Shown here piece by piece: positions 8,559-56,490 of a stretch of 64,000 bases of DNA; within the stretch, counting starts at the first letter, position 1, and every line of letters starts with the position of its first letter. Under the pieces are notes generated by a model, which was not told the origin of the DNA, did no database searches, and was given only the letters and a program-made list of their open reading frames with translations. A program made the position numbers and the translations under genes. This DNA is from Candidatus Uhrbacteria bacterium (GTDB lineage: Bacteria; Patescibacteriota; Patescibacteriia; UBA9934): assembly GCA_963822405.1 (NCBI GenBank), contig CAWGHH010000002.1:266766-330765 (forward strand), given 5' to 3'.

Positions 8559-9074
8559 ATGTTGGCCGGAATTCTTTCAGCCATAATCATGCTCGCCACC
8601 TTTCTGTTAGAAGAAACAGTGTTTGGTATTCTCCCCCTACCTTGGAGATTGATTCCGATAGCTCTCATCCTTGCGTTGTCGCTCATGCACCGCGTGTCTT
8701 TTGAAATGGGAGCAGTTTTTTTACTTGTTTCGACACTTGCTGGGGTATTTTCTGGACTTGCTCCAGTAGCCACCGTTGCTGTAGCTCTGGTTTGTATAGC
8801 CACTTCTTACGCCATGACTGCGCGAGTATTTGCCCGTCGATCACTGGTAGCTTTTGCTGGCTTGTCACTAGCCACTGGTTTAATCTATTTTCTCTTACGC
8901 TTTGGCGTAGTTTCTCCAGTGCCTGGATTTTTTCCGTGGATGTACTTATTTTCTGCTTTGCTAACGGCCTTACTTGCAATTATTTCTTCCTTGGCTCTCG
9001 AATGGATTCTGACCGGGTTTGGAAAAAGCTTTGTCACCAAAAATCAGACCTATGAAGTCCACTCGGAACGATAA
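8559..9074 (+). CDS. mreD: Rod shape-determining protein MreD (putative)
   Basis: 171 aa polytopic membrane protein in the mreBCD position, immediately upstream of PBP2. Confidence 0.6.
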   Translation: MLAGILSAIIMLATFLLEETVFGILPLPWRLIPIALILALSLMHRVSFEMGAVFLLVSTLAGVFSGLAPVATVAVALVCIATSYAMTARVFARRSLVAFAGLSLATGLIYFLLRFGVVSPVPGFFPWMYLFSALLTALLAIISSLALEWILTGFGKSFVTKNQTYEVHSER

Positions 9075-10968
9075 CGATCCAGGGATTTTTGGTCTGGGCG
9101 AAACGCCGGGCAACTGGGGCATTTCTGGTCCTGGAAATGTTGATGACGTCATGGCCGATCCGCAATCAGCGCTCTCTCGCTCAACTGTTGGTTCGCCAAT
9201 TGAGAGGCGTAGATTTCTTTGGGGTGTAGCGGCTTTTTGTCTGGTCTCAATATTATTCGTTGGTAAGAGCGCGTACCTCCAAATTTTGAACGGCGCTCAT
9301 TATCGCGCCCTAGCTGAGGCGAACAGGATTCGCACCTACACCATTCCTTCACATCGTGGGATTCTGACGGATCGTAACGACATCCCGTTGGCGGAAAATC
9401 TTCCGTCTTTTAGATTGGTTGGTTTTGCCTCTGCTTTGCCAAAAGATTCAATTGGTTGGAATTGGCCTTTCATCACTACTCGAAATGATATTTTTGTCGA
9501 AGCAGCTGAAACCTTCGGTCTTAAAGTTGAAGATATAGCAAAAGCCGCAAAAGATGCCGGTAATGTAGAAGAAATTTTGCTAGCCAAAGATTTGCCGTAT
9601 GAAAAAGTTTTAGCTTTCATGGGGTCAGGAAAAACGATTGCCGGTTTGTCCGTTGAGCTTGCTGAAGAACGAGGTTATCCAACGGACGCCATCCCTTCGC
9701 TTTCTCACGTTATTGGATACACTTCGGGAGTGAGTGAGAAAGAATACGCCGTGTTAAAAGATGAAGGTTATCGGTCTTTTGATACCGTAGGCAAGCAAGG
9801 AGTTGAGTCTTCCCATGAAGCAGATCTTCGAGGGACTTTTGGTGAAGACGTATTTGAGGTAAACGCTCAAGGCGCTCCTCTTAGAATTCTTTCGCATACA
9901 GATCCAGTTGACGGTAAAAATTTAAAACTAACTATTGACGCTCGGTTGCAGGCCTACACAGAACTTGTGCTGGCCGAGAAACTTAAAACTAGATCTGTAA
10001 AACGAGCCGCAGTAGTAGCTATTAATCCACAAAATGGGGAAGTGCTCGCTCTTGTTTCTTATCCATCTTTTGATGCAAACGATTTTTCAAAGGGAATTTC
10101 GCAGGACGAGTATGACAAGCTTGTCAATGATCCGAATGCCCCATTATTCCCCAGGGCAACCGCCGGCACGTATCCATCGGGCTCGACTATCAAACCATTT
10201 TTCGCTACGGCTGCCCTCACCGAAGGAATCATCACTCCGCAGACAACATTTTTGTCGACTGGTGGCCTGCAGCTTGGTGATCGCTTCTTCCCTGATTGGC
10301 GACCAGGCGGTCACGGTATTACGAATGTCTATCACGCAATTGCTGATTCAGTGAACACCTTCTTTTACATGATCGGTGGAGGCAACGAATCATTCAAGGG
10401 TCTTGGTATTGAAAAGCTGATGGACTGGGCTAGAAGGTTCGGGCTTGGTCGAAAAACAGGAATCGATCTACCCGGTGAAGCTGACGGTTTCTTGCCGAGT
10501 AAAGAATGGAAGCAGGAGGCGAAGGGCGAGCCATGGTATATCGGCGACACTTACAACGCTTCTATCGGCCAAGGCGATATTCTAGTTACTCCATTACAAA
10601 TGGCTCGAGCCACGGCTGTTGTTGCTAACGGCGGACTCTTGGTGAATCCTCATCTCGTTATTGGGGGCGATACTTCTTCAGTCAGAGTAGCTGACGAGAA
10701 AATCGAAACAGTTGTTCGGGATGCCATGCGCACCACGGTGACAAACGGTACGGCTAGCTCGCTCCAATCATTACCAGTGCCAGCAGCCGGTAAAACGGGT
10801 ACCGCCCAATGGAACTCAGCCAAGGTTCCGCACTCCTGGTTTACCGGTTTTGCCCCCTTTGATAACCCAACTATCGTTATTGCCGTAATCATTGAAGAAG
10901 GCGGGGATGCTACCCTGGCCACGCCGGTCGCCAGGGAAATACTTCAGTGGTACTTGACGCCTCGCTAA
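9019..10968 (+). CDS. mrdA: Penicillin-binding protein 2 (transpeptidase)
   Basis: TM anchor, dimerisation domain, transpeptidase motifs GSTIKPF (SxxK), SVN and GKTGTA. Start is uncertain; an alternative Met is at 9052. Confidence 0.9.
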   Translation: MEKALSPKIRPMKSTRNDNDPGIFGLGETPGNWGISGPGNVDDVMADPQSALSRSTVGSPIERRRFLWGVAAFCLVSILFVGKSAYLQILNGAHYRALAEANRIRTYTIPSHRGILTDRNDIPLAENLPSFRLVGFASALPKDSIGWNWPFITTRNDIFVEAAETFGLKVEDIAKAAKDAGNVEEILLAKDLPYEKVLAFMGSGKTIAGLSVELAEERGYPTDAIPSLSHVIGYTSGVSEKEYAVLKDEGYRSFDTVGKQGVESSHEADLRGTFGEDVFEVNAQGAPLRILSHTDPVDGKNLKLTIDARLQAYTELVLAEKLKTRSVKRAAVVAINPQNGEVLALVSYPSFDANDFSKGISQDEYDKLVNDPNAPLFPRATAGTYPSGSTIKPFFATAALTEGIITPQTTFLSTGGLQLGDRFFPDWRPGGHGITNVYHAIADSVNTFFYMIGGGNESFKGLGIEKLMDWARRFGLGRKTGIDLPGEADGFLPSKEWKQEAKGEPWYIGDTYNASIGQGDILVTPLQMARATAVVANGGLLVNPHLVIGGDTSSVRVADEKIETVVRDAMRTTVTNGTASSLQSLPVPAAGKTGTAQWNSAKVPHSWFTGFAPFDNPTIVIAVIIEEGGDATLATPVAREILQWYLTPR

Positions 10969-11511: not shown

Positions 11512-13002
11512 ATGACCCGCGAAGAACAAGACCGGCTTACTCGGTTACAGTCTCTTGCGACGAATAACGTGAACGCCTATCCGGATAACGCCGGACGAAC
11601 ACACTTAGTGGCTGACGCTCTAGCATCTTTCGAGTCACTCGAAAAATCCGAAGAGACCATTGTGGTCTGTGGTCGAGCCATGGCCATTCGGGATATCGGC
11701 GCGCTGTCATTTCTCAAATTACAGGACGACTCTGGCGTGATGCAGGTGGTTCTTCGTAAGGCTGACCTTGAGGCTGACTACAGTTTCTTTTTGTCACATG
11801 CTGACGTTGGTGACATTCTTGAAGCTAAGGGTCGGGCGTATGTGACGAAGACGGGCGAAAAGTCCGTCTTGGTAACTTCGATCAGAATTTTGTCCAAAGC
11901 TCTAAAACCGTTGCCAGAAAAGTGGCACGGTTTGTCTGACGTTGAAACCCGCTACCGCGAACGCGAGCTTGATCTAATCGTAAACCCGGCGGTTCGGGAA
12001 CGTTTCCGTATCCGCTCAAAGATCGTCTCTGGAATGCGCGCTTTCTTAGATACTAGAGGATTCCTGGAGGTTGAAACACCAATGTTGCAACCTATTCCTG
12101 GTGGCGCAAATGCTCGTCCGTTCGTTACGCATCACAACGCGCTCGGGGCAGATTTATTTCTACGCATCGCTCCTGAGCTCTACTTGAAGCGTTTGGTGGT
12201 TGGTGGCTTCGAAAAGATTTACGAAATCGGTCGTTGTTTCCGTAATGAAGGAATTGATTACTCGCACAATCCAGAATTCACCATGCTTGAGCTCTATTGG
12301 GCTTATGTCAATAAGGACGCATTCATTTCGTTCATGGAAGAATTGCTGGTGACAGTGATTGCCGAAAGTCTCGGCACATTAAAAGTCACGACGAGTGAAG
12401 AAGGAAGATCGATTGATTTCACTGGTCCGTGGCCACGTAAAACTTTTCGCGAAGCAATCTTGGAAGCTTGCGGAATTGATATTGACGAACTAGCTACGGT
12501 TGCCGATGTAAAGGCTGCAGTCAAAGCGAAGAAAGTTAAAGTAGATTTCGCAAAGTGCGTTGGCCTCGGTGAACACTTGGACGAGCTCTGGAAGAAAACT
12601 GCTCGACCAAAGATTACGAATCCAGTTTGGATTTTTGACTACCCGGTCGATCTCAAGCCACTCGCAAAAACTCATCCAGTCGACAAAACAAAAAGCTCAA
12701 CTGTTCAATTAGTAATTGAAGGCGCCGAAGTTATTAACGCGTATTATCACGAGCTTAATGATCCGATTGACCAACGTGCTCGGTTCGTCGCTCAGGAAAC
12801 TTTGCGTGAGCAGGGAAGTGAGGAGGCTCAACACTTGGACGAGGCATTCCTGTCGGCCCTTGAACACGCCATGCCACCAACGAGTGGTTTTGGCATCGGT
12901 ATTGATCGATTCATCGCTTTCTTGACCGGTGTGCCAAACTTAAAAGAAGTTATTCTGTTCCCAACTCTTAAACCGGACACCGGACAACGGAAACCGGAAT
13001 AA
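11512..13002 (+). CDS. lysS: Lysine--tRNA ligase (class II)
   Basis: OB-fold N-terminus. Class II motifs FLEVETPML, FRNEGIDYSHNPEFTMLELYWAY, GFGIGIDR. The track ORF begins at TTG 11500; ATG 11512 is preferred. Confidence 0.95.
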   Translation: MTREEQDRLTRLQSLATNNVNAYPDNAGRTHLVADALASFESLEKSEETIVVCGRAMAIRDIGALSFLKLQDDSGVMQVVLRKADLEADYSFFLSHADVGDILEAKGRAYVTKTGEKSVLVTSIRILSKALKPLPEKWHGLSDVETRYRERELDLIVNPAVRERFRIRSKIVSGMRAFLDTRGFLEVETPMLQPIPGGANARPFVTHHNALGADLFLRIAPELYLKRLVVGGFEKIYEIGRCFRNEGIDYSHNPEFTMLELYWAYVNKDAFISFMEELLVTVIAESLGTLKVTTSEEGRSIDFTGPWPRKTFREAILEACGIDIDELATVADVKAAVKAKKVKVDFAKCVGLGEHLDELWKKTARPKITNPVWIFDYPVDLKPLAKTHPVDKTKSSTVQLVIEGAEVINAYYHELNDPIDQRARFVAQETLREQGSEEAQHLDEAFLSALEHAMPPTSGFGIGIDRFIAFLTGVPNLKEVILFPTLKPDTGQRKPE

Positions 13003-41926: not shown

Positions 41927-43026
41927 ATTTCCTTTAGTTTTCCCATCTGCTCTTCTCTCGTAAACTGCTCAAGCACTCGCACTCTCCCCCGCGAACCCAT
42001 GGAGGCGCGCAGTTCAGGGCTGTCAATGAGTATCTGCAAGCCCTTCACAAGGTCATCGGTAGTGTCATCGACGAGCACGCCCGTCTTGCCGTCTACTATC
42101 GCTTCAGCCACTCCCCCGGTGCGTGTACCAACGACAGGGAGGCCGAACAGATTCGCTTCGAGGTACACGATACCAAACCCTTCACGATCAATACTCGATT
42201 GCGTGGTCGGCATGACAAAAATATCTGCGTCAGCGTAAATTTCAGGCAAGGTTAAGTCATCAGCATCCGTAATCATCGTTACGCGCTCTCCGAGTCCAAG
42301 CTCAATGATCTTCGCCTTAATCTTCTCTTTCATTGGCCCGTCACCTACGATCGTGTATTTCGTATTCGACAGCTTAGTCATCGCGTCGAGCACCTTCAAA
42401 TGCCCCTTACGCTCTACAAGCCGGGCGACGGTCAATAACGTTACGTGTTTGTCATCCTGAGCAGAGCGAAGGATCTGATTGGTTGGCACAGGGAGGCCAA
42501 TCGCCCCAGCCGCCAGTTTCGCCAAATCCCTCAAATCAGTCCATCCTTTTCCCTTCCTCACTCCCTTTGACGCCTCAACTAACGCATCCGCCACCGGCGG
42601 ATATATGCATAGTACGGGCCGACTTCTATGTCGGCCCTCTCTCAGGCTCTCGACCTCACTTTTCAATGCCTCCGAATTTACTACAACCGCCTCCGCTCCC
42701 CTCAGGATTCTCCCGGTCAACCACCTCTTCCACGCATTTCTCCTCGCCAAATCAAAATCCATGCCGTGCAAAAATATCACGTAAGGCTTTGATCCCATCA
42801 TCTTTGCTAACCACGCCACAGTTCCTACTGGCAAAATCTCATGTATAAAATACAGATCTGTCACTTGATTACTCTGCCAAAAAATCGGAAAAATTAATTC
42901 ATAACTTGGTCGAGCAATCCGTTCAATAGCAACAGACGGATAAGTCAAAACAATCGCGTCAATATACCGCGCAATACCGCCACGAGCACCCTCTTTTTGA
43001 AGTGTTGGAATAGCTACTCGTTTCAT
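41914..43026 (-). CDS. Glycosyltransferase family 4 (GT-B)
   Basis: 370 aa. C-terminal EGFGIVYLEANLFGLPVVGTRTGG (E-x7-E motif region). A repeat-derived QILRSAQDDK segment lies between the two Rossmann halves. Confidence 0.85.
   Translation of the reverse strand: MKRVAIPTLQKEGARGGIARYIDAIVLTYPSVAIERIARPSYELIFPIFWQSNQVTDLYFIHEILPVGTVAWLAKMMGSKPYVIFLHGMDFDLARRNAWKRWLTGRILRGAEAVVVNSEALKSEVESLREGRHRSRPVLCIYPPVADALVEASKGVRKGKGWTDLRDLAKLAAGAIGLPVPTNQILRSAQDDKHVTLLTVARLVERKGHLKVLDAMTKLSNTKYTIVGDGPMKEKIKAKIIELGLGERVTMITDADDLTLPEIYADADIFVMPTTQSSIDREGFGIVYLEANLFGLPVVGTRTGGVAEAIVDGKTGVLVDDTTDDLVKGLQILIDSPELRASMGSRGRVRVLEQFTREEQMGKLKEICNQ
42451..42483. repeat. Short palindromic repeat embedded in-frame in the GT4 glycosyltransferase gene
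   Basis: gtcatcctgagcagagcgaaggatctgattgg. Encodes QILRSAQDDK in the inter-domain linker on the minus strand. Confidence 0.5.
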
Positions 43027-44486
43027 ACGGAAGAAACTTCTTCGGCAATCCCATTTTGTCTAAAACGAGGGACAATTGCCCAGAGCGCGCGCAGATGTTC
43101 AACCGTCAGTGACTTCGTGGAAAACGCAACAATGAAGAAGACTACTGCGCCAAGCGGAATAGTCAAAATCCAAGGAATAAACGCTTTAGAAATCATCACT
43201 ACTCCGGCCATCACCGCTCCACTCGCCAGCGAGCCACCAATGAATGGAATGAGATCAAAGAACGGAACTTTGATTACGCGCTGAAGCATGATGTACCCAA
43301 CCGTGAACATAAATGAAAAACTAATAAACGCCGCTACGCCAGCACCTTCTATTCCAAGTCGTGGAACTAGAATTAAATTAGATACGATGTTAATCACCAT
43401 GGTCGCGCCCATAATTGCTGTTTTAGTAGACTGTCGACCAGTGGCATTGAGGAGCGAACCAACTGGATAGTCAAGAAAAATAAATAACAACGCGAACACG
43501 AGAATCTGCAGCGTCGGCGCAGCTTCTGCAAATTTAGAAGTATAAATGAAATTAATAAAGTCTGGAGCCAGGGCGAACAAGCCAAAAACAACTGGAGCCG
43601 CTAACAAAGCCATGTACCACTCAGCATTCAAAAAAGTATTTTTTAGCTTGTCTGGTTCGTTCGCCTGTGCACTCATGGTCGGATACAGCGCACCGATGAA
43701 CGCCAATGGAAGGAACTGGAACGCGTACGTGAGCTTGTACGCCACCGCGTATACGCCCACTGCCGCCTGTCCGTAGACCATGTTAATAGTGAACGAATCG
43801 ACGTACGAATATATTTTCACGAAGACTGCCGCCAAGAAAAACATAAAAGACATCTTGAGTGGCTTCAGTCCCTCGGAGAACTCCGGAACTATCGCCTTCC
43901 AACCTAATCGACGAACAACCTGGCTCACCGAAAAAATTGCGTTCCAAGCACTACCAGCAATAAGCGCAACAATCAGTAGTGTCAGATCCGTCGAATTGGT
44001 CAAAAGAACCGTCGCCCCGATAATCGTAGTGATAGTCTGGCCGACGAATATTCCGATCGACTCGTACTTCAAGTTCTGAAACCCTCGCAAAACACCAAAG
44101 TACGCCAGCGAAACGGTGTCGAGTAACATGATAGCAATTGCAATATGCGTCAGCCTCGCTGCCTCTGCATCAAATCCTAATAATGGTGGCAAAACTATCG
44201 CCAGCACAATCGTCACCGGAATTGTCAGCAACTTATTCGCGAGTACATTCCTCACATGCTTCAACGCACGATCATTCTCACGCGCCACCTCTCGTATCAG
44301 CACCGAGGTAAGACCGACGTCGCCAAAAACACCAATAGTCGTAGTTAGTCCCAAGGCCAAAAAGTAAGAGCCGAGTGCTGCGTCCCCAATTGTTCTAGCA
44401 ACCACCGCAAAGTACAGAAACGCAATCGCCTTCTGCCCGACAGACGCCACCGTTAAAAGGAACGTATTCCTTGCAAGTTGGGACAT
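43023..44486 (-). CDS. Polysaccharide flippase (Wzx / MOP superfamily)
   Basis: 487 aa, 12-14 TM helices, typical Wzx N-terminal pattern. Confidence 0.8.
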   Translation of the reverse strand: MSQLARNTFLLTVASVGQKAIAFLYFAVVARTIGDAALGSYFLALGLTTTIGVFGDVGLTSVLIREVARENDRALKHVRNVLANKLLTIPVTIVLAIVLPPLLGFDAEAARLTHIAIAIMLLDTVSLAYFGVLRGFQNLKYESIGIFVGQTITTIIGATVLLTNSTDLTLLIVALIAGSAWNAIFSVSQVVRRLGWKAIVPEFSEGLKPLKMSFMFFLAAVFVKIYSYVDSFTINMVYGQAAVGVYAVAYKLTYAFQFLPLAFIGALYPTMSAQANEPDKLKNTFLNAEWYMALLAAPVVFGLFALAPDFINFIYTSKFAEAAPTLQILVFALLFIFLDYPVGSLLNATGRQSTKTAIMGATMVINIVSNLILVPRLGIEGAGVAAFISFSFMFTVGYIMLQRVIKVPFFDLIPFIGGSLASGAVMAGVVMISKAFIPWILTIPLGAVVFFIVAFSTKSLTVEHLRALWAIVPRFRQNGIAEEVSSV

Positions 44487-48141: not shown

Positions 48142-48528
48142 TTAGGTCTTTGCTAGAACACGACGACCGCTACCGGCTGTCTTTCTGACGTTACCACGCG
48201 TAGTGCGGGAATTGGACTTTGTGCGCTGGCCACGAACCGGGAGGTTCTTTGAGTGGCGGATACCGCGACGAGCACCAATATCCTTTAGACGCTTAATGTT
48301 TGAAAGCTTTTCGCGGCGAAGTTCACCTTCTACGCGGAAATCTTTTTCAACGATAACGCGGATAGCGTTCTCTTGATCAAGAGTCAAGTCCTTAGCGCGG
48401 GTCTCTTCTGAGACACCTGCTTTCTTCAAAACGTCATGGGCGCGTGTCTGACCAACTCCATAAATGTATTGGAGTCCAATGACAATGCGCTTCTGAGCTG
48501 GGATTGTGACACCGGCGATTCTAGCCAT
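48142..48528 (-). CDS. rpsM: 30S ribosomal protein S13
   Basis: MARIAGVTIPAQKRIVIGLQYIYGVG. Confidence 0.95.
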   Translation of the reverse strand: MARIAGVTIPAQKRIVIGLQYIYGVGQTRAHDVLKKAGVSEETRAKDLTLDQENAIRVIVEKDFRVEGELRREKLSNIKRLKDIGARRGIRHSKNLPVRGQRTKSNSRTTRGNVRKTAGSGRRVLAKT

Positions 48529-48530
48529 AG

Positions 48531-48644
48531 TTAGCCTTGGCGCTGCTTATGCTTAGGAATTTTGCAAACTACGCGAACGCGGCCTTCCCGACGGATGACC
48601 TTGCAATCGCGACAGATTTTCTTAACAGATGAACGTACTTTCAT
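48531..48644 (-). CDS. rpmJ: 50S ribosomal protein L36
   Basis: Hand-translated: [37 protein letters not shown] (37 aa). Below the track cutoff. Confidence 0.85.
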
Positions 48645-48721: not shown

Positions 48722-48937
48722 CTAGAAGCGGAACGTTATTCGAGCCTTGGTGAGATCATAGGGGCTGATCTCACACTTGACGTCATCACCGGGCATTACC
48801 CGGATGCGGTTCTTACGGAGTTTGCCCGCAAGGTGACCAATGACTTCCATGTCTGTTTCGAGTTTGATGCGGAAAGCTCCACCAGGAAGCGATTCCAACA
48901 CCTCACCACGCATTTCTAGAAAATCTTTTTCGGCCAT
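48722..48937 (-). CDS. infA: Translation initiation factor IF-1
   Basis: [71 protein letters not shown] (72 aa). The track ORF is extended upstream. Confidence 0.9.
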
Positions 48938-49028
48938 AGCCGTATTAATATACCAGAGTGCGCTTGGATTAAACAAGAAACCTCTACACAGAAATGCGGG
49001 GGAAGTGTACTCGTCCACCGCGGGAGTG

Positions 49029-50006
49029 TCAAGAAACACGGTGGATAGCGAATTCAACGATCTTCTTGGCTACGTCTAGCCCCGTTACCCGTTCTAGCTC
49101 CTTAAACCCAGGATTTGCGTTCACCTCCATTATTAGCGGTCCACGATTTGATCGAAGTATATCAACGCCGGCAATATCAAGTTTCATCGCCTGCGTTGCC
49201 TGAAGCGCAAGCTTGCGCTCTTCGTCGGTAAGTTCCGCTTGCTGTTCGGTCCCGTCTGGACTGCCGTTACTTCTAACCTCGCCAGACGCGGCATCGAACC
49301 GAATAGCTGCAACCACATCTTCGCCCACCACAAATGCTCGAACCGTCGATCTATTCGCTTCGTTAATGAACTCCTCGACCAGCACCGGATTACCGTCTCT
49401 AACTGCAAGATAATCTGCTATAGGAAAAAGAGTCTCTTTATTTTCAACGTAAAAAACTCCCGTACCCTTTGCTCCAAAAGCTACCTTCAACATGACAGGA
49501 TAGCCAATTACGTTCGCGGCCTCCACACAAGCCTTATAACCAAAAGCTATAGACCAATGAGGAATTGAAATGTTTGCAACGTGCAAGACGGCTCGCTGTA
49601 GAAGTTTATTCTTTGTTCTCAATATCCCTTCCCCACCATTCACCAGTTTGTATCCGGCCGTTTTTAATAAATCGTAAACAGCCTGATGCTGAGAGGGCTC
49701 CTCAATAAAATTCGCTCGAACAATAATCACATCAATCTCACCTAACGCAACCCCATCATTAAAAACAGCCACTGTGCCTTTTTGCTCTTCAAATCTTAAA
49801 TGTCCCTCTAACAATCTTACAGATTCATGCCCTAGCCCCAAAATAGCCTCTTCTAATCTTAAGGTCGAACTCAAAGCCCCAGTCGTCTCAACAGAATTCA
49901 AAATCCCGACGCGCATATGGTCTAACCGTAGCGCATCGGGATACTGTTTGGCAATAAGTGAGTTACTCGAGTTCAGGACATTGGAATTCTGGAACCTTGC
50001 CTCCAC
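49029..50006 (-). CDS. rimK: RimK-family ATP-grasp alpha-L-glutamate ligase
   Basis: C-terminal half closely follows E. coli RimK ([14 protein letters not shown]..., [22 protein letters not shown]). Overlaps the upstream gene by 44 nt. Confidence 0.8.
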
Positions 50007-50598
50007 TCGGAGTAGCCGATTTCACACCAACATCCTTCGTGCCGGCGTTGAAAATATACGAGTAAGGTCGCACAGCTTCTGTGAAGGCCGAATGATCGAT
50101 ATCCGTGCCCAACGCTGCATACTTCTGCAAAACAGCCGAAAGACCATGCGCTGCATTCACCGTAAGGAGATAAGGCTCGCTTAATTTGTCATCTTCCAAA
50201 AGAGCAATAAGTTGATTGAACTTTGTGTCCTGTTTCTTGATGAACGCGTAGTCCTCAGCAAATGTTGGTGCACTCTCCGCATCTCCTCTCATGAAAAAAC
50301 CATTAAACATGCCCTCGATATCGACAATCAAACACATCGCATCATTACTCACGAAGGCTGATGGATATGCATAATTTGAAGTGTCAGCCTGATTGTTCTT
50401 TGCGATTCCAGCATTAAGCGCTGCGATGACGGATGCGGAAAGTGGCTTGTTAGATCCCAACTCACGAGCAATGTCTGCACTCGTAACAGCATGCGGAATC
50501 TGACTCGCCACAAGTAATGACCCGAAGGCTAGACCAACAACCGAACCAAGCAACATGCCCGGAATAAAGTGGGCGAGGAAATGAGATTTTGATTCCAT
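49963..50598 (-). CDS. Signal-anchored extracytoplasmic protein, 211 aa (paralogous N-terminus with next gene)
   Basis: MESKSHFLAHFIPGMLLGSVVGLAFGSLLVASQIPH, then a non-repetitive domain. N-terminal 36 aa is near-identical to that of 50600-51412. Confidence 0.5.
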   Translation of the reverse strand: MESKSHFLAHFIPGMLLGSVVGLAFGSLLVASQIPHAVTSADIARELGSNKPLSASVIAALNAGIAKNNQADTSNYAYPSAFVSNDAMCLIVDIEGMFNGFFMRGDAESAPTFAEDYAFIKKQDTKFNQLIALLEDDKLSEPYLLTVNAAHGLSAVLQKYAALGTDIDHSAFTEAVRPYSYIFNAGTKDVGVKSATPSGGKVPEFQCPELE

Positions 50599-50599
50599 A

Positions 50600-51412
50600 T
50601 TAATTCATCATGCTAGCCTCAACGTCCACGGTCTCATTGTCCGTCCAACCGTTCATCATCCAGGCCTCGCCAAAAGAAGTGTGAATAGGGCCGTCGCCTT
50701 TATAGCCACCAAATGTCCTGGTCTTCATGTCGAAGATCCACAAAATACCTCGTTCTGACATGGCGTTACCAAGAGCAGCTACAACGGCGATCTTAGAACC
50801 GTCAGGTGAGAACTTAGCGTCGAACTGCGTGTAATGCTGATCCGGGAGAGCGTATGTTTGAACATCGTTCGCGTCATCAATCGCTCGAATCTGCAACGAG
50901 ATCGTCGGTCCGATATCTTGGAAAAACTGTGCCAAGTATTTTTCGTCCGGGGAAATGTCGAGCCCCTGGCGAATACCCCCCTGTCCGAAAGTCGGATCAA
51001 GCAGTCGATCAACCTTACCAGTACAAGTATTCACTCGAATCATGTCATATGTCACTGGATACAAAATGTAACCGCCAAGGCCATCTGGATTAAAATCAAG
51101 ATAGGCATTTATAGAAGCAGAATTAACTTGATAAAAGTTCCCAGCATTAAAGAGACCGTTCGGAAAATCTACTTCAGAAATTTTCTTGTCCTTCAAATAT
51201 ATACCAAAGTTGTGTTCGTCGAGAGCCTTCCAGGAAAGATCCTTAAACGAACCAACACAATCACTCGTCACAGCACCACCTTGCGCCAACTGCTTGGTTG
51301 CAGAATGTGGAATCTGACTCGCTACAAGCAACGAACCAAACGCGAGACCAACAACTGAACCGAGAAGAATGCCGGGAATAAAGTGAACGAGAAAATGGGA
51401 TTTGGATTGCAT
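50600..51412 (-). CDS. Signal-anchored protein with WD40-like (TolB-type) beta-propeller repeats
   Basis: MQSKSHFLVHFIPGILLGSVVGLAFGSLLVASQIPH anchor. Repeats DISPDEKYLAQFF and FSPDGSKIAVVAALG typical of TolB-like propellers. Confidence 0.55.
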   Translation of the reverse strand: MQSKSHFLVHFIPGILLGSVVGLAFGSLLVASQIPHSATKQLAQGGAVTSDCVGSFKDLSWKALDEHNFGIYLKDKKISEVDFPNGLFNAGNFYQVNSASINAYLDFNPDGLGGYILYPVTYDMIRVNTCTGKVDRLLDPTFGQGGIRQGLDISPDEKYLAQFFQDIGPTISLQIRAIDDANDVQTYALPDQHYTQFDAKFSPDGSKIAVVAALGNAMSERGILWIFDMKTRTFGGYKGDGPIHTSFGEAWMMNGWTDNETVDVEASMMN

Positions 51413-51500: not shown

Positions 51501-53277
51501 CTATCCGAGTATCGCCTTAATCCGTCTCACGCCCGAAGACACCGCCTCTTCTTTTTGGATCTTGAATCCGCCAAGCTCGCCGGTATGAGTGACGTGCGGG
51601 CCGCCGCAGATTTCTTTAGAATAGTCGCCGACAGAATAGACGTTGATCTTGCCACCTATGTTCGCATACTTATCTTCGAACAAACCAATTGCCCCGCTGG
51701 CTTTCGCTTCCTCAACGGTTAGTTGCTCGGCTTTCACTGGCATGTCTTTCTTGATCTGTTCGTTCACTATGGCCTCGACCTTCGCAATTTCTTCCGGCGT
51801 CATCTTGGTGTTATGCGAAAAATCGAAACGCAAACGTTCGGCAGTGATGTTACTGCCCTTTTGTTCAACATGAGGGCCGAGGACGTCGCGAAGTGCTTGA
51901 TGCAAAATATGCGTCGCGGTGTGTAGGCGAGTAGTTTCAACAGAGTGATCAGCGAGTCCGCCGGCAAATTTCTTTTCAGCGCCTTGTCGAGATAGATCCT
52001 GGTGCTTCTTGAATTCAGCGGCGAATGCCTCGCGGTCGACTTCTTGGCCCTGCTCATGTGCGAGCTCGTGAGTTACTTCGAGCGGGAAACCGTAAGATTG
52101 ATAAAGATTAAACGCGTCTTCACCAGAAATAGCTTTGTTCTTTTCAAACATCTTCTGGAATTCTCGAAGGCCCTGCGCAAGTGTCTTCTCGAATTTCATT
52201 GCCTCGGTGCTCAGACCGGAAACGATCAGCTCGCGCTTCTCGACCAACATTGGATACGCCTCGCCGAGTGAAGCGACGATCTCGTCGACAACTGGACCGA
52301 TCAATTTCTGCGTGTCGATTCCGAGTTTCTTGGCGTGACGGATTGCTCGACGGATTAATCGACGGAGAATATATCCCTGGTCTTTATTAGAAGGTTCGAC
52401 GCCATCCATGAACATGATAGACGCGGCGCGAAGATGGTCAGCAATAATGCGCATTGACTTCATAGTCTCTGGCGCAGCCGCATATTCGAAACCGGATAAT
52501 TCCTCAAGCTTCTTCAAAATGTTCGTGAACAGCTCAGTCTCATACACGTTCGCGCGATGCTGGAGAGCGACGATCGTACGCTCCATGCCCATGCCAGTAT
52601 CCACGCTACCATGTTCAAGCGGCATCAAAGTGCCATCTTCTTGTTTATTGAATTGCATGAACACGTTATTCCAAATTTCCATCCAACGCTTGTCCTTTGG
52701 ATCATAAATAGCCGGTGGCTCCTCAGAACTCGTCCAATAAAAAATTTCCGTGTCTGGTCCGCACTGGTCCAGTCTTCCCCGCCGGTCCCCACCAGTTGTC
52801 TTCTTTTCCGAGCCTCGCGATCCGGTCGGCCGACACACCAAGACGAATCCAATGATCGTATGCTTCTTGATCGAACGGTGTATTCGCGTCTCCCTCGAAC
52901 ACCGTGAACGACAAATGTGTAAGAGGAATATTCAACCAATCTTTACTCGTCAAAAATTCAAAAGACCATTCTATAGATTCTTTCTTAAAATAATCGCCAA
53001 GGGACCAGTTACCCAACATGGTAAAAAATGTGAGGTGCGTGTTGTCGCCCACGTCATCAATGTCGCCGGTTCTAATGCAGCGTTGATAATCGACTAGTCG
53101 CTTCCCCGCTGGATGCGGCTCGCCCAAAAGATACGGCACAAGCGGATGCATACCCGCGGTCGTAAACAGAACAGTCGGATCATTTACCGGCACAACGGAA
53201 GCCGATGGAATTTCGACATGATTCTTTGATTTGAAGAACTCGACGTATTTCTTTCGGAGGTCGTTGGCGGTTATCAT
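51501..53277 (-). pseudogene. alaS: Alanine--tRNA ligase, split into two ORFs by an apparent 1-nt frameshift
   Basis: N-terminal ORF from [15 protein letters not shown], ...[26 protein letters not shown]...[12 protein letters not shown]-terminal ORF 51501-52841 resumes GPDTEIFYW...editing domain (HTATHILH, CGGPHV). Removing a g at about 52763 gives the canonical [11 protein letters not shown]. Confidence 0.8.
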
Positions 53278-53584: not shown

Positions 53585-55207
53585 TTATGTACCAGCTGGA
53601 CCCATGTCCCCAACTTCGGCCGGCTGGGCGGCTTTGAGGAATTTTCTTTGTAAGCCAGCCGTGATGCTTCGTAGCTCGGGGCTCTTCAAGAAATAGGCCG
53701 CTAACAAGTAGACGCCTCCACCAACCAAACTCGCCACTGAAAATTGCAAAAAGACATTCGCAAAAGTATCAAGCGTGATGTAACGCACAATCGCGTACTT
53801 TGCACCTTGAGTAGCAAAGGCTGAAAGAATACCGGAGAGCGAAAAGACAAAAACAGAATAGAGAATCTTCTTTTCATCAAGTCCGCCAATTTTGTGATGA
53901 AGAAATACCCAGAGAAAAGCCGTCTGGATCATAGCCGCACCAGTGAAAGCAATGGCCAGACCGAATAACCCGTAAGCGTGCGAAAGTGGAAAAGCAACTG
54001 CCACCGCTAACGCTCCACCAAATAGTGCAATGATAAACGGCGTCAAAGTGTCTTCAAGCGCGTAATACATTCTGACCAGAATAAAATTTGCCGCTTGTGC
54101 AAAAAAACTGATCGCAAAAATGGCGAGCGTATCTGCAATTAACACCGTCGACGTCCAATCCAAACCATCTGCGCCGTAGACCACACGCACTAACTGCGCT
54201 CGCAAAAGCAAAAATAGTACAGTTGCTGGAATCATGTAAAACATTACCTGGCGCATGGTGAGAGAAAATGAAGCGCGCATACCGGCTATGTCATTAACTG
54301 CGGCGCGTTCACAAAAAGTTGGATAGGCGGCAATAGCGTAAGAAACTGCCACAATACCAATCGGGACAAAGTTCAAAGTGTAAGCAAGATTAAAATCTCG
54401 AACAGCGCCATCGGCAATAGTTGTGGCAATCACGCTCATGAGCAAGAACTCGACCTGATTCACCGCCAAACCAAGAACCCGCGGAACCGTCTGTTTGGCC
54501 GTCAGCACCAAATCTGGATCTCGAAGTTTCAAGTATGGCTGGTAACGGTAACCAACTGAAATTGCGCCAACAAGCTGGACGAGCATGTGTAAAAATGAAC
54601 CAAGCACTACGCCCCAAGCCAAACCAATCGGACCAGTGATTGGCACAATGAACAAGGCACCGAGAATGATACCGGCGTTATAAACAATTGGCGCAAAGGC
54701 CGGAAGAAAAAACCTTTTAGTTCCTTGAAGAATCGAACCAAAAACAATCGACGCTGCAAAAAACAATTGACCCAAGAAAATAATTCGCGTCATCTGCGCC
54801 ACCGCCGCCTGTTTTTCAGGTGACCAAGTTGGGGCGAGAGCCGGCGCAATCCACGGAGCGAACGCAATAACAAAACCAGAAATGACAATGAAAATTAATA
54901 GAACCAAGTGAAGAACATTATTCGTATACTTCCAAGCACGCGCCTTATCATCACTAGCCCAAGCCTTAGTGAACACCGGAATGAAACTTGCAGAAATTGC
55001 CCCGACAACTAGCAGCTGAAACAGCAAATCTGGCAAGCGAAAAGACTGATAATAAACGTCTAGCACATTGGCCGATTGCCCGTTGAATGCCCCGATCAGC
55101 ACACGATCGCGAATAAGACCCGCCACGCGAGACAACAGAGACATTGCTCCTACAATAAAAGCAGCGGAAGCTACAGTAGATGACGCACTAAACAATTTCC
55201 TGATCAT
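53585..55207 (-). CDS. murJ: Lipid II flippase MurJ (MviN)
   Basis: 540 aa, 14 TM. MOP-family pattern with conserved Arg/Asp in TM1-2 region ([11 protein letters not shown]). Confidence 0.85.
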
Positions 55208-56490
55208 ACCTCTTGTAGGCGACGAAGGCGGTAGATGTAGATAAGAAGAGCAAGCAAGAGCAAGACAAGCAGAGAAAGCACTAGATCAACGAGCGGGTTA
55301 CCAAGATGAAAGAACGAAATGTTAATCATCTGCGAATCAGTAAACATTTTACCGCCATCCGTAGCCACCGCCAGAGTCACTTTGTAATCACCAGAACGTG
55401 GGAATACATGAGTCACTTTGCTTTCAACACTAGTCGAACCATCACCAAAGTCCCAGCCGAATGCCCCAGCCACCTCGCCTTGTGGCTTAGCGTTAAACTC
55501 ATAAGTTCGCCAATCTATCTGTCTATAACTAAATCGAGCGTCTGGAGAAAGTTTGAGATTTCCCAAGGTAATTGGAGTGGCAGCGTCTTCAGTGGCGGAG
55601 TTAGGCGACACCAAATCCGTACCTAACACACCCGAAGAAATATCAGCCACTGCCAGATCAGTTCCGCCGTTATCCGGTGTGCTCGATTCAACCGGGTCAG
55701 CGCCTCCCTGCTCGTCAGTGATTCCGGCAACTACTGGAACAGGATTCTTTGCGGGAGTCGTCACGTGAGTTGGAGTTGGCCCGCCGGTCGAACTTCCACT
55801 AGACGATCCGTTCGAGCTTCCACCAGGAGCCACTGCCACAACAACCGGCGGCGGGTTAGTTGAACGTGTTGAATCAAGCGGAAAAGCATCGCTTCCGTCA
55901 GGTGAACCGTCACCATCAGTATCCGGATTAGTTGGCGAAGTTCCGTTCGCAATTTCAGTTGTATCAGGGGTGCCATCGTTGTCATCATCACTGTCACAAG
56001 CATTGCCGGCACCGTCATGATCAGTATCAAGCTGATCAGCGTTAGAAATATTTGGGCAATTATCTGTGTCATCAGCTATCCCGTCATGATCGCCATCAAT
56101 AATTGGCGTATAGAGCGGAGTCATAGCCTCATCATTAGCAGCTACTACATCCGCCGGATCTTGTCCCTGAATTCTCGCAAGAATATTAAACGGACTTTGC
56201 GGAACAATATAGTCCACAAAAACATCGTCACCGTTACCACCGGCCACAACCGAAACTATCTGGCTAGTGCCAACTAATTGACTACCTTGATAAAAAAATA
56301 CCTGAGCTGTCATGTCTACCTCGCCCTCATTTTTAATAGTGGCGTAGATACGGATGTGATCTCCGGCGTACAAAGTACTCTTTGAGAAGTGAATGCTCGA
56401 GGCCTTGATTGAAAGGTCAGGTGACGCAGCTAAAGCCGAAAACGGCAGAAGCGTCAGACACATGACGACAAGCGAAAGAAAATATCGCAT
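55204..56490 (-). CDS. Cell-surface protein: CARDB-like N-domain, thrombospondin type-3 Ca-binding repeats, PKD domain, C-terminal TM anchor
   Basis: Signal peptide. TSP3 repeats [41 protein letters not shown] motif WDFGDGSTS...[15 protein letters not shown]-terminal [18 protein letters not shown]. Confidence 0.7.

Follow-up and report, generated by a model that had tools for sequence, protein, structure and literature searches.

A recurrent membrane anchor between alaS and rimK in one clade of Patescibacteria and its probable insertion at a hotspot

We analyzed a window of 64,000 nucleotides from the genome of a Candidatus Uhrbacteria bacterium (assembly GCA_963822405.1, contig CAWGHH010000002.1, positions 266,766 to 330,765), and more precisely three consecutive genes of its minus strand (49029 to 51412). 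These genes encode two predicted single-pass membrane proteins, of 270 and 211 aa, that start with nearly the same anchor, and an ATP-grasp ligase of the RimK family. A first reading of this DNA from its letters (hereafter, the sequence-only reading) had proposed either a peptide-ligase system acting on the two surface proteins or a duplicated anchor cassette. The second proposal agrees with our results, since the 36-aa anchor module is found on at least six unrelated types of ectodomain, in arrays of one to three, at one locus. We find it fairly probable that the association results from a hotspot for cassette insertion between alaS and rimK combined with vertical inheritance, in which case the surface proteins and RimK are probably functionally unrelated.

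In the scenario that we favor, the ancestral order would have been alaS directly followed by rimK. The junction between the two genes would have become an insertion hotspot, where a clade-specific family of surface proteins expanded and was shuffled, and into which anchor cassettes and, in some relatives, HicAB, GIY-YIG, and MazG genes would have been inserted. The region would form the central part of a small hypervariable island that runs from alaS to infA in one clade of Patescibacteria, at the level of a genus to a family. The anchor would consist of a short cytoplasmic stub (M-E/Q-S-K-S-H) and a transmembrane helix with a four-glycine zipper, and would insert the protein via Sec/YidC. Glycine zippers promote the close packing of helices, and we therefore propose that the zipper probably mediates the oligomerisation of paralogues or their docking on one common membrane partner. 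The interchangeable and shuffled ectodomains (beta-propeller, orphan, or Cys-rich) probably mediate contacts at the cell surface, while the cytoplasmic RimK would add L-glutamate to the C-terminal carboxylate of a translation-related acceptor, by analogy the ribosomal protein S6.

A membrane anchor shared by unrelated ectodomains

The 270-aa protein (P0004; 50600..51412, minus strand) and the 211-aa protein (P0001; 49963..50598, minus strand) are identical at 33 of their first 36 residues. The corresponding DNA, codons 1-36 of each gene (copy 1, MQSKSHFLVHFIPGILLGSVVGLAFGSLLVASQIPH, 51305..51412, and copy 2, MESKSHFLAHFIPGMLLGSVVGLAFGSLLVASQIPH, 50491..50598, both on the minus strand), is 81.5% identical over 108 nt, in line with the near-identity and the value of about 80% given in the sequence-only reading. 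A repeat finder recovered the same two copies independently, as a direct repeat of 114 nt with 82% identity, and there are only two copies of the module in the window. Past residue 40, approximately, the proteins are unrelated. Most of the anchor codons that differ between the copies do so by synonymous changes only (15/18) which, together with the 33 identical residues, indicates that the duplication is old and that the anchor is under strong purifying selection. Since the synonymous differences are saturated, recent gene conversion between the copies can be set aside. Beyond the anchor duplication, the repeat finder revealed no significant inverted repeats, tandem repeats, or invertible promoters at the locus, and the locus has no recombinase gene. 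Hence, when compared with phase- or antigen-variable cassettes, it displays the conserved 5' module on divergent tandem bodies but no switching mechanism.

The anchor has the consensus M-[EQ]-S-K-S-H-F-L-x-H-F-I-P-G-[IM]-L-L-G-S-V-V-G-[LM]-A-F-G-S-L-L-V-A-[ST]-Q-I-P, with glycines in the perfect register of a zipper (G14xxxG18xxxG22xxxG26). An AlphaFold2 (AF2) model places a helix at residues 12-32, coinciding with the hydropathy peak, and K4 is the sole charged basic residue ahead of this helix. Most ectodomain modules have conserved cysteines, which fits an extracytoplasmic location of these parts. We infer that the family is made of type II (N-in, C-out) signal-anchored proteins with a single membrane pass, and signal-peptidase cleavage is presumed to be absent. 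The proteins of the family end in very different residues (N, E, R, Y, L, I, Q, S, D, and K), and their C-termini are expected on the outer side of the membrane.

The anchor has a very narrow distribution. When the 211-aa protein was searched against 5.8e9 clusters (word-indexed), it matched 17 proteins, solely via their N-terminal 36-45 residues, approximately. An exhaustive search of 1.84e9 representative proteins with a hidden Markov model (HMM) of the anchor gave about 16 credible members and none outside of the family, and a scan of metagenomic DNA gave two loci, of which one short contig was the only new one. The anchor is thus known in only about 20 proteins, all of them from one small clade of Patescibacteria. 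Its identity across genomes is 80-97%, similar to that of core proteins. We considered that the anchor might be more conserved than housekeeping genes and rejected this idea: the genomes that carry it are closely related (most core proteins are 90-99% identical), and the divergence of the anchor follows that of the core. Finally, viral scans identified no relatives of the anchor or of the propeller in viral contigs, and the locus had no match to the defence-system models of PADLOC. We therefore did not retain a mobile or phage origin of the cassettes.

We defined the ectodomain modules by all-against-all BLAST. Module A, the propeller, is present in the 270-aa protein and in P0002, P0007, P0010, P0138-140, and P0145. 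Modules C and D are joined in P0011, P0013, and P0017, and D occurs alone in P0003, P0012, and P0143. Module E is found in P0005, P0006, P0008, and P0009, and occurs in P0014 as a fusion with a partial A module. Module F is found in P0016 and at the C-terminus of the protein of locus L090. P0015 and the 211-aa protein of the window (module B) have singleton ectodomains. Chimeras include C+D, E+A, and C+F. The sequence-only reading had described the product of the first gene as TolB-like. The beta-propeller fold stands, as AF2 predicts a propeller-type ectodomain with confidence for the 270-aa protein, but the protein has no TolB or PD40 match in Pfam. It lacks the N-terminal domain that in TolB accompanies a six-bladed PD40 propeller, and is predicted to be anchored in the membrane, not to be periplasmic. 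Module A is also smaller (about 220 aa, of which about 150 residues superpose) than the propellers of TolB, PD40, and S9 peptidases. As for module B, we found no homologues beyond the anchor in the searched clusters, and no sequence match in Pfam, NCBIfam, PADLOC, or the PDB. The structure prediction that had been suggested for this protein was run in single-sequence mode, as there were no homologues to align, and the model was unusable (pLDDT of 42). We also tested whether a frameshift in another module of the family could have given rise to this ectodomain as a decayed copy, and this was ruled out.

Older paralogues of module A carry diverged anchors (L005, 7186-8019; L007, 7544-8350, which is P0139; L092, 596-1363 and 2136-2900). 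They keep the glycine spacing in part and have lost the VASQIP segment, and one of them has an unrelated transmembrane helix. The conservation of the anchor is thus not absolute. Outside of the clade, the only distant homologue of module A is P0141, from Peregrinibacteria, whose gene is flanked by uvrB and the ATP synthase operon, away from rimK. The window also encodes a surface protein of the PKD/TSP3 type (55204-56490, minus strand) that has a classical signal peptide and, at its C-terminus, a transmembrane helix. Its gene overlaps murJ by 4 nt, and the pairing of the two is kept in all relatives. As this neighbouring protein has an ordinary and different signal peptide, the anchor module is not the generic leader of the organism.

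The alaS-rimK junction in relatives

We compared the gene neighbourhood in 10 sequenced contexts (the window/L001, L002, L003/L004, L005, L006, L007/L008, L009, L090, L092, and a 586-kb JGI contig) and in one more that was read from a gene table only. All 11 have alaS, then one to three canonical anchor genes (up to three or four when diverged copies are included), and then rimK. On the 3' side of rimK there are 0-2 variable genes on the minus strand, sometimes including ddl, followed by infA-rpsM-rpsK-rpsD-rpoA-rplQ-rplM-rpsI. All anchor copies with a readable context lie between alaS and rimK. The sister genome L091 has alaS, a gap of 1 nt, and rimK, with no anchor gene, and it retains the wider synteny (SpoU, GT2, PKD, murJ, alaS ... 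rpsM). The gap between alaS and rimK has received other genes as well: it contains a HicAB toxin-antitoxin pair in L005 (9481-9931) and GIY-YIG and MazG-like genes in the 586-kb JGI contig (8320-9025). This points to a general insertion hotspot.

The picture is different outside of this clade. A scan of the species genomes of GTDB provided 80 loci with RimK. Patescibacteria account for about 60-70 of these, with orthologues in Uhrbacteria, Peregrinibacteria, and Magasanikbacteria among them. In none of the 80 is alaS, infA, an anchor gene, or a module-A gene located within 8 kb of rimK. The gene directly 5' of rimK on the same strand is dus, encoding a tRNA dihydrouridine synthase, in 25 of these 80 loci, often with an overlap of 4 nt. 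An Elp3-like radical-SAM/GNAT gene takes this 5' place in two loci (L017 and L035), and a gene for an uncharacterised 249-aa protein in 6-8 of the 80. The loci of the dus/Elp3 type (L010-L058 and L079; e.g., L014 4580-5650 and L010 6976-7944) come from Uhrbacteria-like Patescibacteria, and many of them have a VKOR and thioredoxin-like gene pair divergently upstream. Judging from these neighbourhoods, the partners of RimK across the phylum, which are genes of tRNA and translation, fit a translation-related substrate and not a surface-protein substrate. As a check of its proposal, the sequence-only reading had asked if rimK and the anchor genes co-occur in related genomes. They do within the narrow clade, where vertical inheritance could account for it, and they do not outside of it.

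Within the clade, the class of the RimK allele does not co-vary with the type of the adjacent ectodomain. Module A adjoins both major RimK classes, and C+D, E+A, and C+F adjoin others. The presence of a sister genome without any cassette, the frequent position of the outside orthologues after dus, and the lack of correspondence between alleles and ectodomains lead us to interpret the adjacency as hotspot insertion and not as a ligase with its substrates.

The RimK-family ligase and its divergence

The third gene (49029..49916, minus strand, 295 aa) encodes a protein that, according to profile and sequence comparisons, truly belongs to the RimK family of alpha-L-glutamate ligases. It matches the RimK family of Pfam (PF08443) with an E-value of 5.6e-43 (147.2 bits, for a cutoff of 21) and the RimK-family alpha-L-glutamate ligase profile TIGR00768 with 184.6 bits, above the cutoff of 143.4. 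The sequence-only reading called it a close RimK homologue; membership of the family holds, but closeness does not, as the protein shares only about 32% identity with E. coli RimK and reaches 147 bits with NF007764, the equivalog of the S6 ligases of the E. coli/Pseudomonas type, far below the cutoff of 331. Nine residues are invariant in an alignment of 22 homologues (A1): K102, K104, K144, R193, R215, N217, D252, E264, and N266. Five of them (R215, N217, D252, E264, and N266) align with R211, N213, D248, E260, and N262 of E. coli RimK, and we take D252, E264, and N266 to be the Mg/ATP-binding positions of ATP-grasp enzymes. Among solved structures, the closest are those of E. coli RimK (5zct and 4iwx, E-value of about 3e-38) and of Pseudomonas RimK (7qyr and 7qys), with enzymes of the LysX type far behind.

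RimK is the L-glutamate ligase of ribosomal protein S6 in E. coli and Pseudomonas (PDB 4iwx, 5zct, 7qyr, 7qys; PMC10092738, PMC4741518). The enzyme of the window resembles these proteins in its ATP-grasp subfamily, in an alignment over the full length (residues 11-289), in its size of about 290 aa, and in the matched invariant residues, including the RSN motif. It differs from them by its low identity, by the absence of rimA and rimB, and by its alaS/infA context. Genes for a protease or a phosphodiesterase are not adjacent in any of the compared loci. The amino-group carrier-protein ligases LysX/ArgX and the cofactor glutamate ligases MptN and CofF share the fold and the chemistry of the RimK superfamily, but the protein scores far below the cutoffs of all three (135 bits for 275.6, 124 for 350, and 65 for 300, respectively). 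There is no LysW-type carrier gene (small Zn-ribbon or acidic tail) in the locus, and no genes of cofactor pathways nearby. Nor does the locus resemble a graspetide-like ligase of the MdnB/C type with its short precursor peptide, as the neighbours are membrane proteins of 200-340 aa and the ligase belongs to the alpha-L-glutamate subfamily. The absence of the ligase/neighbour pairing outside of one clade further counts against an ATP-grasp system for ribosomally synthesized and post-translationally modified peptides.

The RimK proteins of the clade are surprisingly diverse. Those of L002, L006, L007, and L090 are 54-59% identical to that of the window, and that of L005 is 78% identical, whereas the core proteins encoded next to it in these five genomes, namely AlaS, InfA, and ribosomal proteins, are about 88-99% identical to their counterparts in the window. 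The RimK proteins of near relatives are no closer to that of the window than the one of the much more distant L091. In a neighbour-joining tree they are monophyletic and split into deep allele groups, which do not follow the similarity of the core. This suggests deep allele classes or allelic exchange. The window has a second variable surface-related gene, encoding a flippase of the Wzx type (43023-44486, minus strand) downstream of the ribosomal genes, whose product is only 67-68% identical in close relatives with the core proteins at about 88-99%.

The S6 analogy can be examined through the tail of the acceptor, as E. coli RimK extends the Glu-Glu tail of S6. The sequence-only reading had proposed to look for a C-terminal Glu/Asp tail in rpsF. 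This gene was not found in the window with the E. coli query. We identified S6 in two other RimK-bearing Patescibacteria (L022, about 8680-9233, and L033, about 12210-12770, both on the minus strand), where about 85 aa with many Asp, Glu, and Lys residues extend the C-terminus of the protein, which ends in ...DPKA or ...DEKEA.

A conserved element upstream of rimK

Between the 211-aa gene and rimK lies a spacer of 46 nt (49917..49962, minus strand) that holds a conserved element. It consists of TTGCCA (49954-49949), 18 nt that include TCCCGATGCGC, TACGGT (49930-49925), and 8 nt before the ATG. In an alignment of the window and nine related loci, the segment ...TCCCGATGCGCTAC... is kept in the window and six loci regardless of the upstream gene, and blastn also detects a short conserved block before rimK. 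Since this motif of about 40 nt is kept whatever gene precedes it, rimK appears to have its own control region. The element may be the promoter of rimK or a regulatory site, and its distance to the ATG would suggest a transcript that is leaderless or has a very short leader.

Alternative explanations

Several points weigh against the hotspot explanation. The anchor family was never seen apart from rimK in the 11 informative contexts (11/11). The divergence of RimK is odd for a housekeeping modifier of the ribosome and places rimK itself inside the variable island. The S6 proteins of L022 and L033 do not end in Glu-Glu, which weakens the analogy with S6. Lastly, the topology, the absence of cleavage, and the oligomerisation by the zipper are putative. 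The constant co-occurrence leaves some room for a functional coupling in which RimK acts on the N-terminal stub of the anchor proteins or on their C-terminus before export, or makes a glutamyl peptide that they bind or export. Such a coupling would agree with the position of rimK, which in most contexts lies 3' of a co-directional anchor gene, at a distance of about 40-65 nt, and is otherwise separated from it by one or two genes, with the unusual divergence of both the ectodomains and RimK relative to the flanks, and with the C-terminus of the 211-aa protein (...PELE). However, rimK occurs without anchor genes in L091 and in about 60-70 other loci of Patescibacteria, RimK varies next to a nearly invariant anchor, and it retains its own upstream element and alleles that are independent of the ectodomains. 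Furthermore, enzymes of the RimK family ligate to a carboxylate, and the sole carboxylate of the stub, E2, is replaced by Q or P in several proteins of the family. We thus regard this coupling as quite improbable. The proposal of the sequence-only reading, a peptide-ligase system acting on the surface proteins, likewise finds no support: alaS and rimK adjoin without anchors in L091, anchor or propeller neighbours are missing in the scanned loci of other Patescibacteria, P0141 is not near rimK, and heterogeneous C-termini outside of the cell are a poor fit to the addition of C-terminal Glu. A stronger version, in which rimK and the anchors make one co-diversifying module and deeply diverged RimK alleles, exchanged between nearly identical genomic backgrounds, glutamylate the cytoplasmic stub of the zipper anchor or a bound partner, tuning the assembly or turnover of a variable surface array, seems to us very unlikely. 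If it were true, it would reveal a class of membrane-protein substrates for RimK-type ligases in episymbiotic Patescibacteria.

The two components can also be read differently one at a time. The conserved module could be a cleaved signal or sorting peptide, comparable to the YSIRK and ESPR leaders, that routes secreted proteins to a particular export site. This would explain why conservation extends past the hydrophobic core into V-A-S-Q-I-P, where small residues at -3/-1 make VAS|Q a possible site for signal peptidase I, and it would agree with the use of an ordinary signal peptide by the PKD protein of the same genome. Yet the hydrophobic stretch of about 22-25 residues has the length of a transmembrane helix and exceeds typical signal-peptide cores, a four-glycine zipper is typical of helix-helix packing, and the diverged paralogues (L005 7186-8019 and P0139) keep the spacing of the glycines while losing VASQIP, so we consider cleavage to be unlikely. 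As for rimK, it could be a diversifying envelope or conflict gene, for instance one that adds an amino acid to a cell-wall or surface polymer, with alleles exchanged together with the cassettes. The contrast between RimK and its flanks and a tree that is incongruent with the core would be expected in this case, as would the company of ddl in the island of relatives, of murJ, the PKD surface protein, and the divergent wzx flippase nearby, and the S6 tails without Glu-Glu. Little credence can be given to it, though, because the best solved relatives are by a wide margin bona fide S6 ligases, the score exceeds the cutoff of the alpha-L-glutamate ligase subfamily, the conserved partners across Patescibacteria are dus, the Elp3-like gene, and alaS, which are not envelope genes, and PADLOC has no match. 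An insertion hotspot with vertical inheritance hence remains the explanation that we prefer.

Gene boundaries and flanking genes

The three ORFs lie on the minus strand and, as claimed by the sequence-only reading, directly upstream of infA-rpmJ-rpsM, although their boundaries had to be revised. The longest ORF of rimK spans 49029-50006 and starts at a GTG (50006), from which an overlap of 44 nt with the 211-aa gene had been deduced. The ATG at 49916 (MRVGILNS...) is the aligned start of all 21 homologues in A1 and the one chosen by gene callers, and with it the overlap is replaced by the spacer described above. Similarly, the reported overlap of 1 nt between the 270-aa and 211-aa genes is in fact a gap of 1 nt (50599). 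The order on the minus strand is murJ (53585-55207), alaS, the 270-aa ORF, the 211-aa ORF, rimK, infA, rpmJ (48534-48644), and rpsM (48142-48528), then rpsK, rpsD, rpoA, rplQ, rplM, and rpsI. The absence of secY, adk, and map was corroborated, as none was detected anywhere in the window with E. coli queries.

The right border of the variable island, infA (48722..48937, minus strand; Pfam eIF-1a), starts at the ATG at 48937 (MAEKDF...) and its product is 93-100% identical among relatives. A longer ORF of 111 aa that overlaps rimK from a TTG start (48938-49057) is an artefact, as the conserved InfA begins at this ATG. A promoter-like TTGACA-17-TACACT is found 5' of infA (49032-49004), where such sites are not more frequent than by chance: the counts from promoter and terminator scans of the region were not above shuffled expectation and provide hints only. 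The left border, alaS (51501..53277, minus strand; Pfam tRNA-synt_2c), is split into two overlapping ORFs that match positions 2-164 and 162-437 of the Pfam family. Comparison by tblastn and blastn with the intact AlaS of L005 and L002 (591 aa) reveals a switch of frame and a single additional base near 52764 (52760-52770: CCAGTGCGG, for CCA-TGCGG in L002 and L005), which falls within the conserved GPCGPDTE motif. The independent Logan contig L001 terminates exactly at this position. The frameshift is likely an error of assembly or sequencing; a true pseudogene is unlikely since the gene is essential.

Comparison with other surface-protein families and implications

Conserved N-termini on variable surface proteins have precedents. 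The Vsp and Vlp lipoproteins of Mycoplasma are encoded in tandem, by genes whose bodies diverge and whose 5' end, with the signal peptide, is highly conserved. The anchor family is similar in that tandem paralogues at one locus of a host-associated bacterium with a reduced genome combine a conserved membrane-targeting N-terminus with variable and shuffled surface parts. It differs by having a glycine-zipper transmembrane helix in place of the lipobox Cys, and by the lack of internal tandem repeats, invertible promoters, and flanking inverted repeats; variation is seen between genomes. Transmembrane helices with glycine zippers (GxxxGxxxG) occur in Romo1/Mgr2 and other small membrane proteins. 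The anchor has a weak and non-significant profile similarity to Romo1 (E = 0.038) and to the thylakoid protein ssl2009 (E = 0.012), but here the zipper anchors proteins with larger ectodomains.

These results overturn nothing in the current understanding of these bacteria and make three modest points. The perfect co-occurrence of two gene families within a narrow clade (11/11) can arise from an insertion hotspot and vertical descent, which calls for caution in inferences from gene neighbourhoods. RimK is consistently coupled to genes of tRNA and translation in Patescibacteria, yet S6 lacks a Glu-Glu tail in the two genomes mentioned above. Finally, little is known about the surface proteins of Patescibacteria, bacteria that live attached to the cells of a host; the anchor family provides a compact set of candidates for proteins of host contact or nutrient capture.

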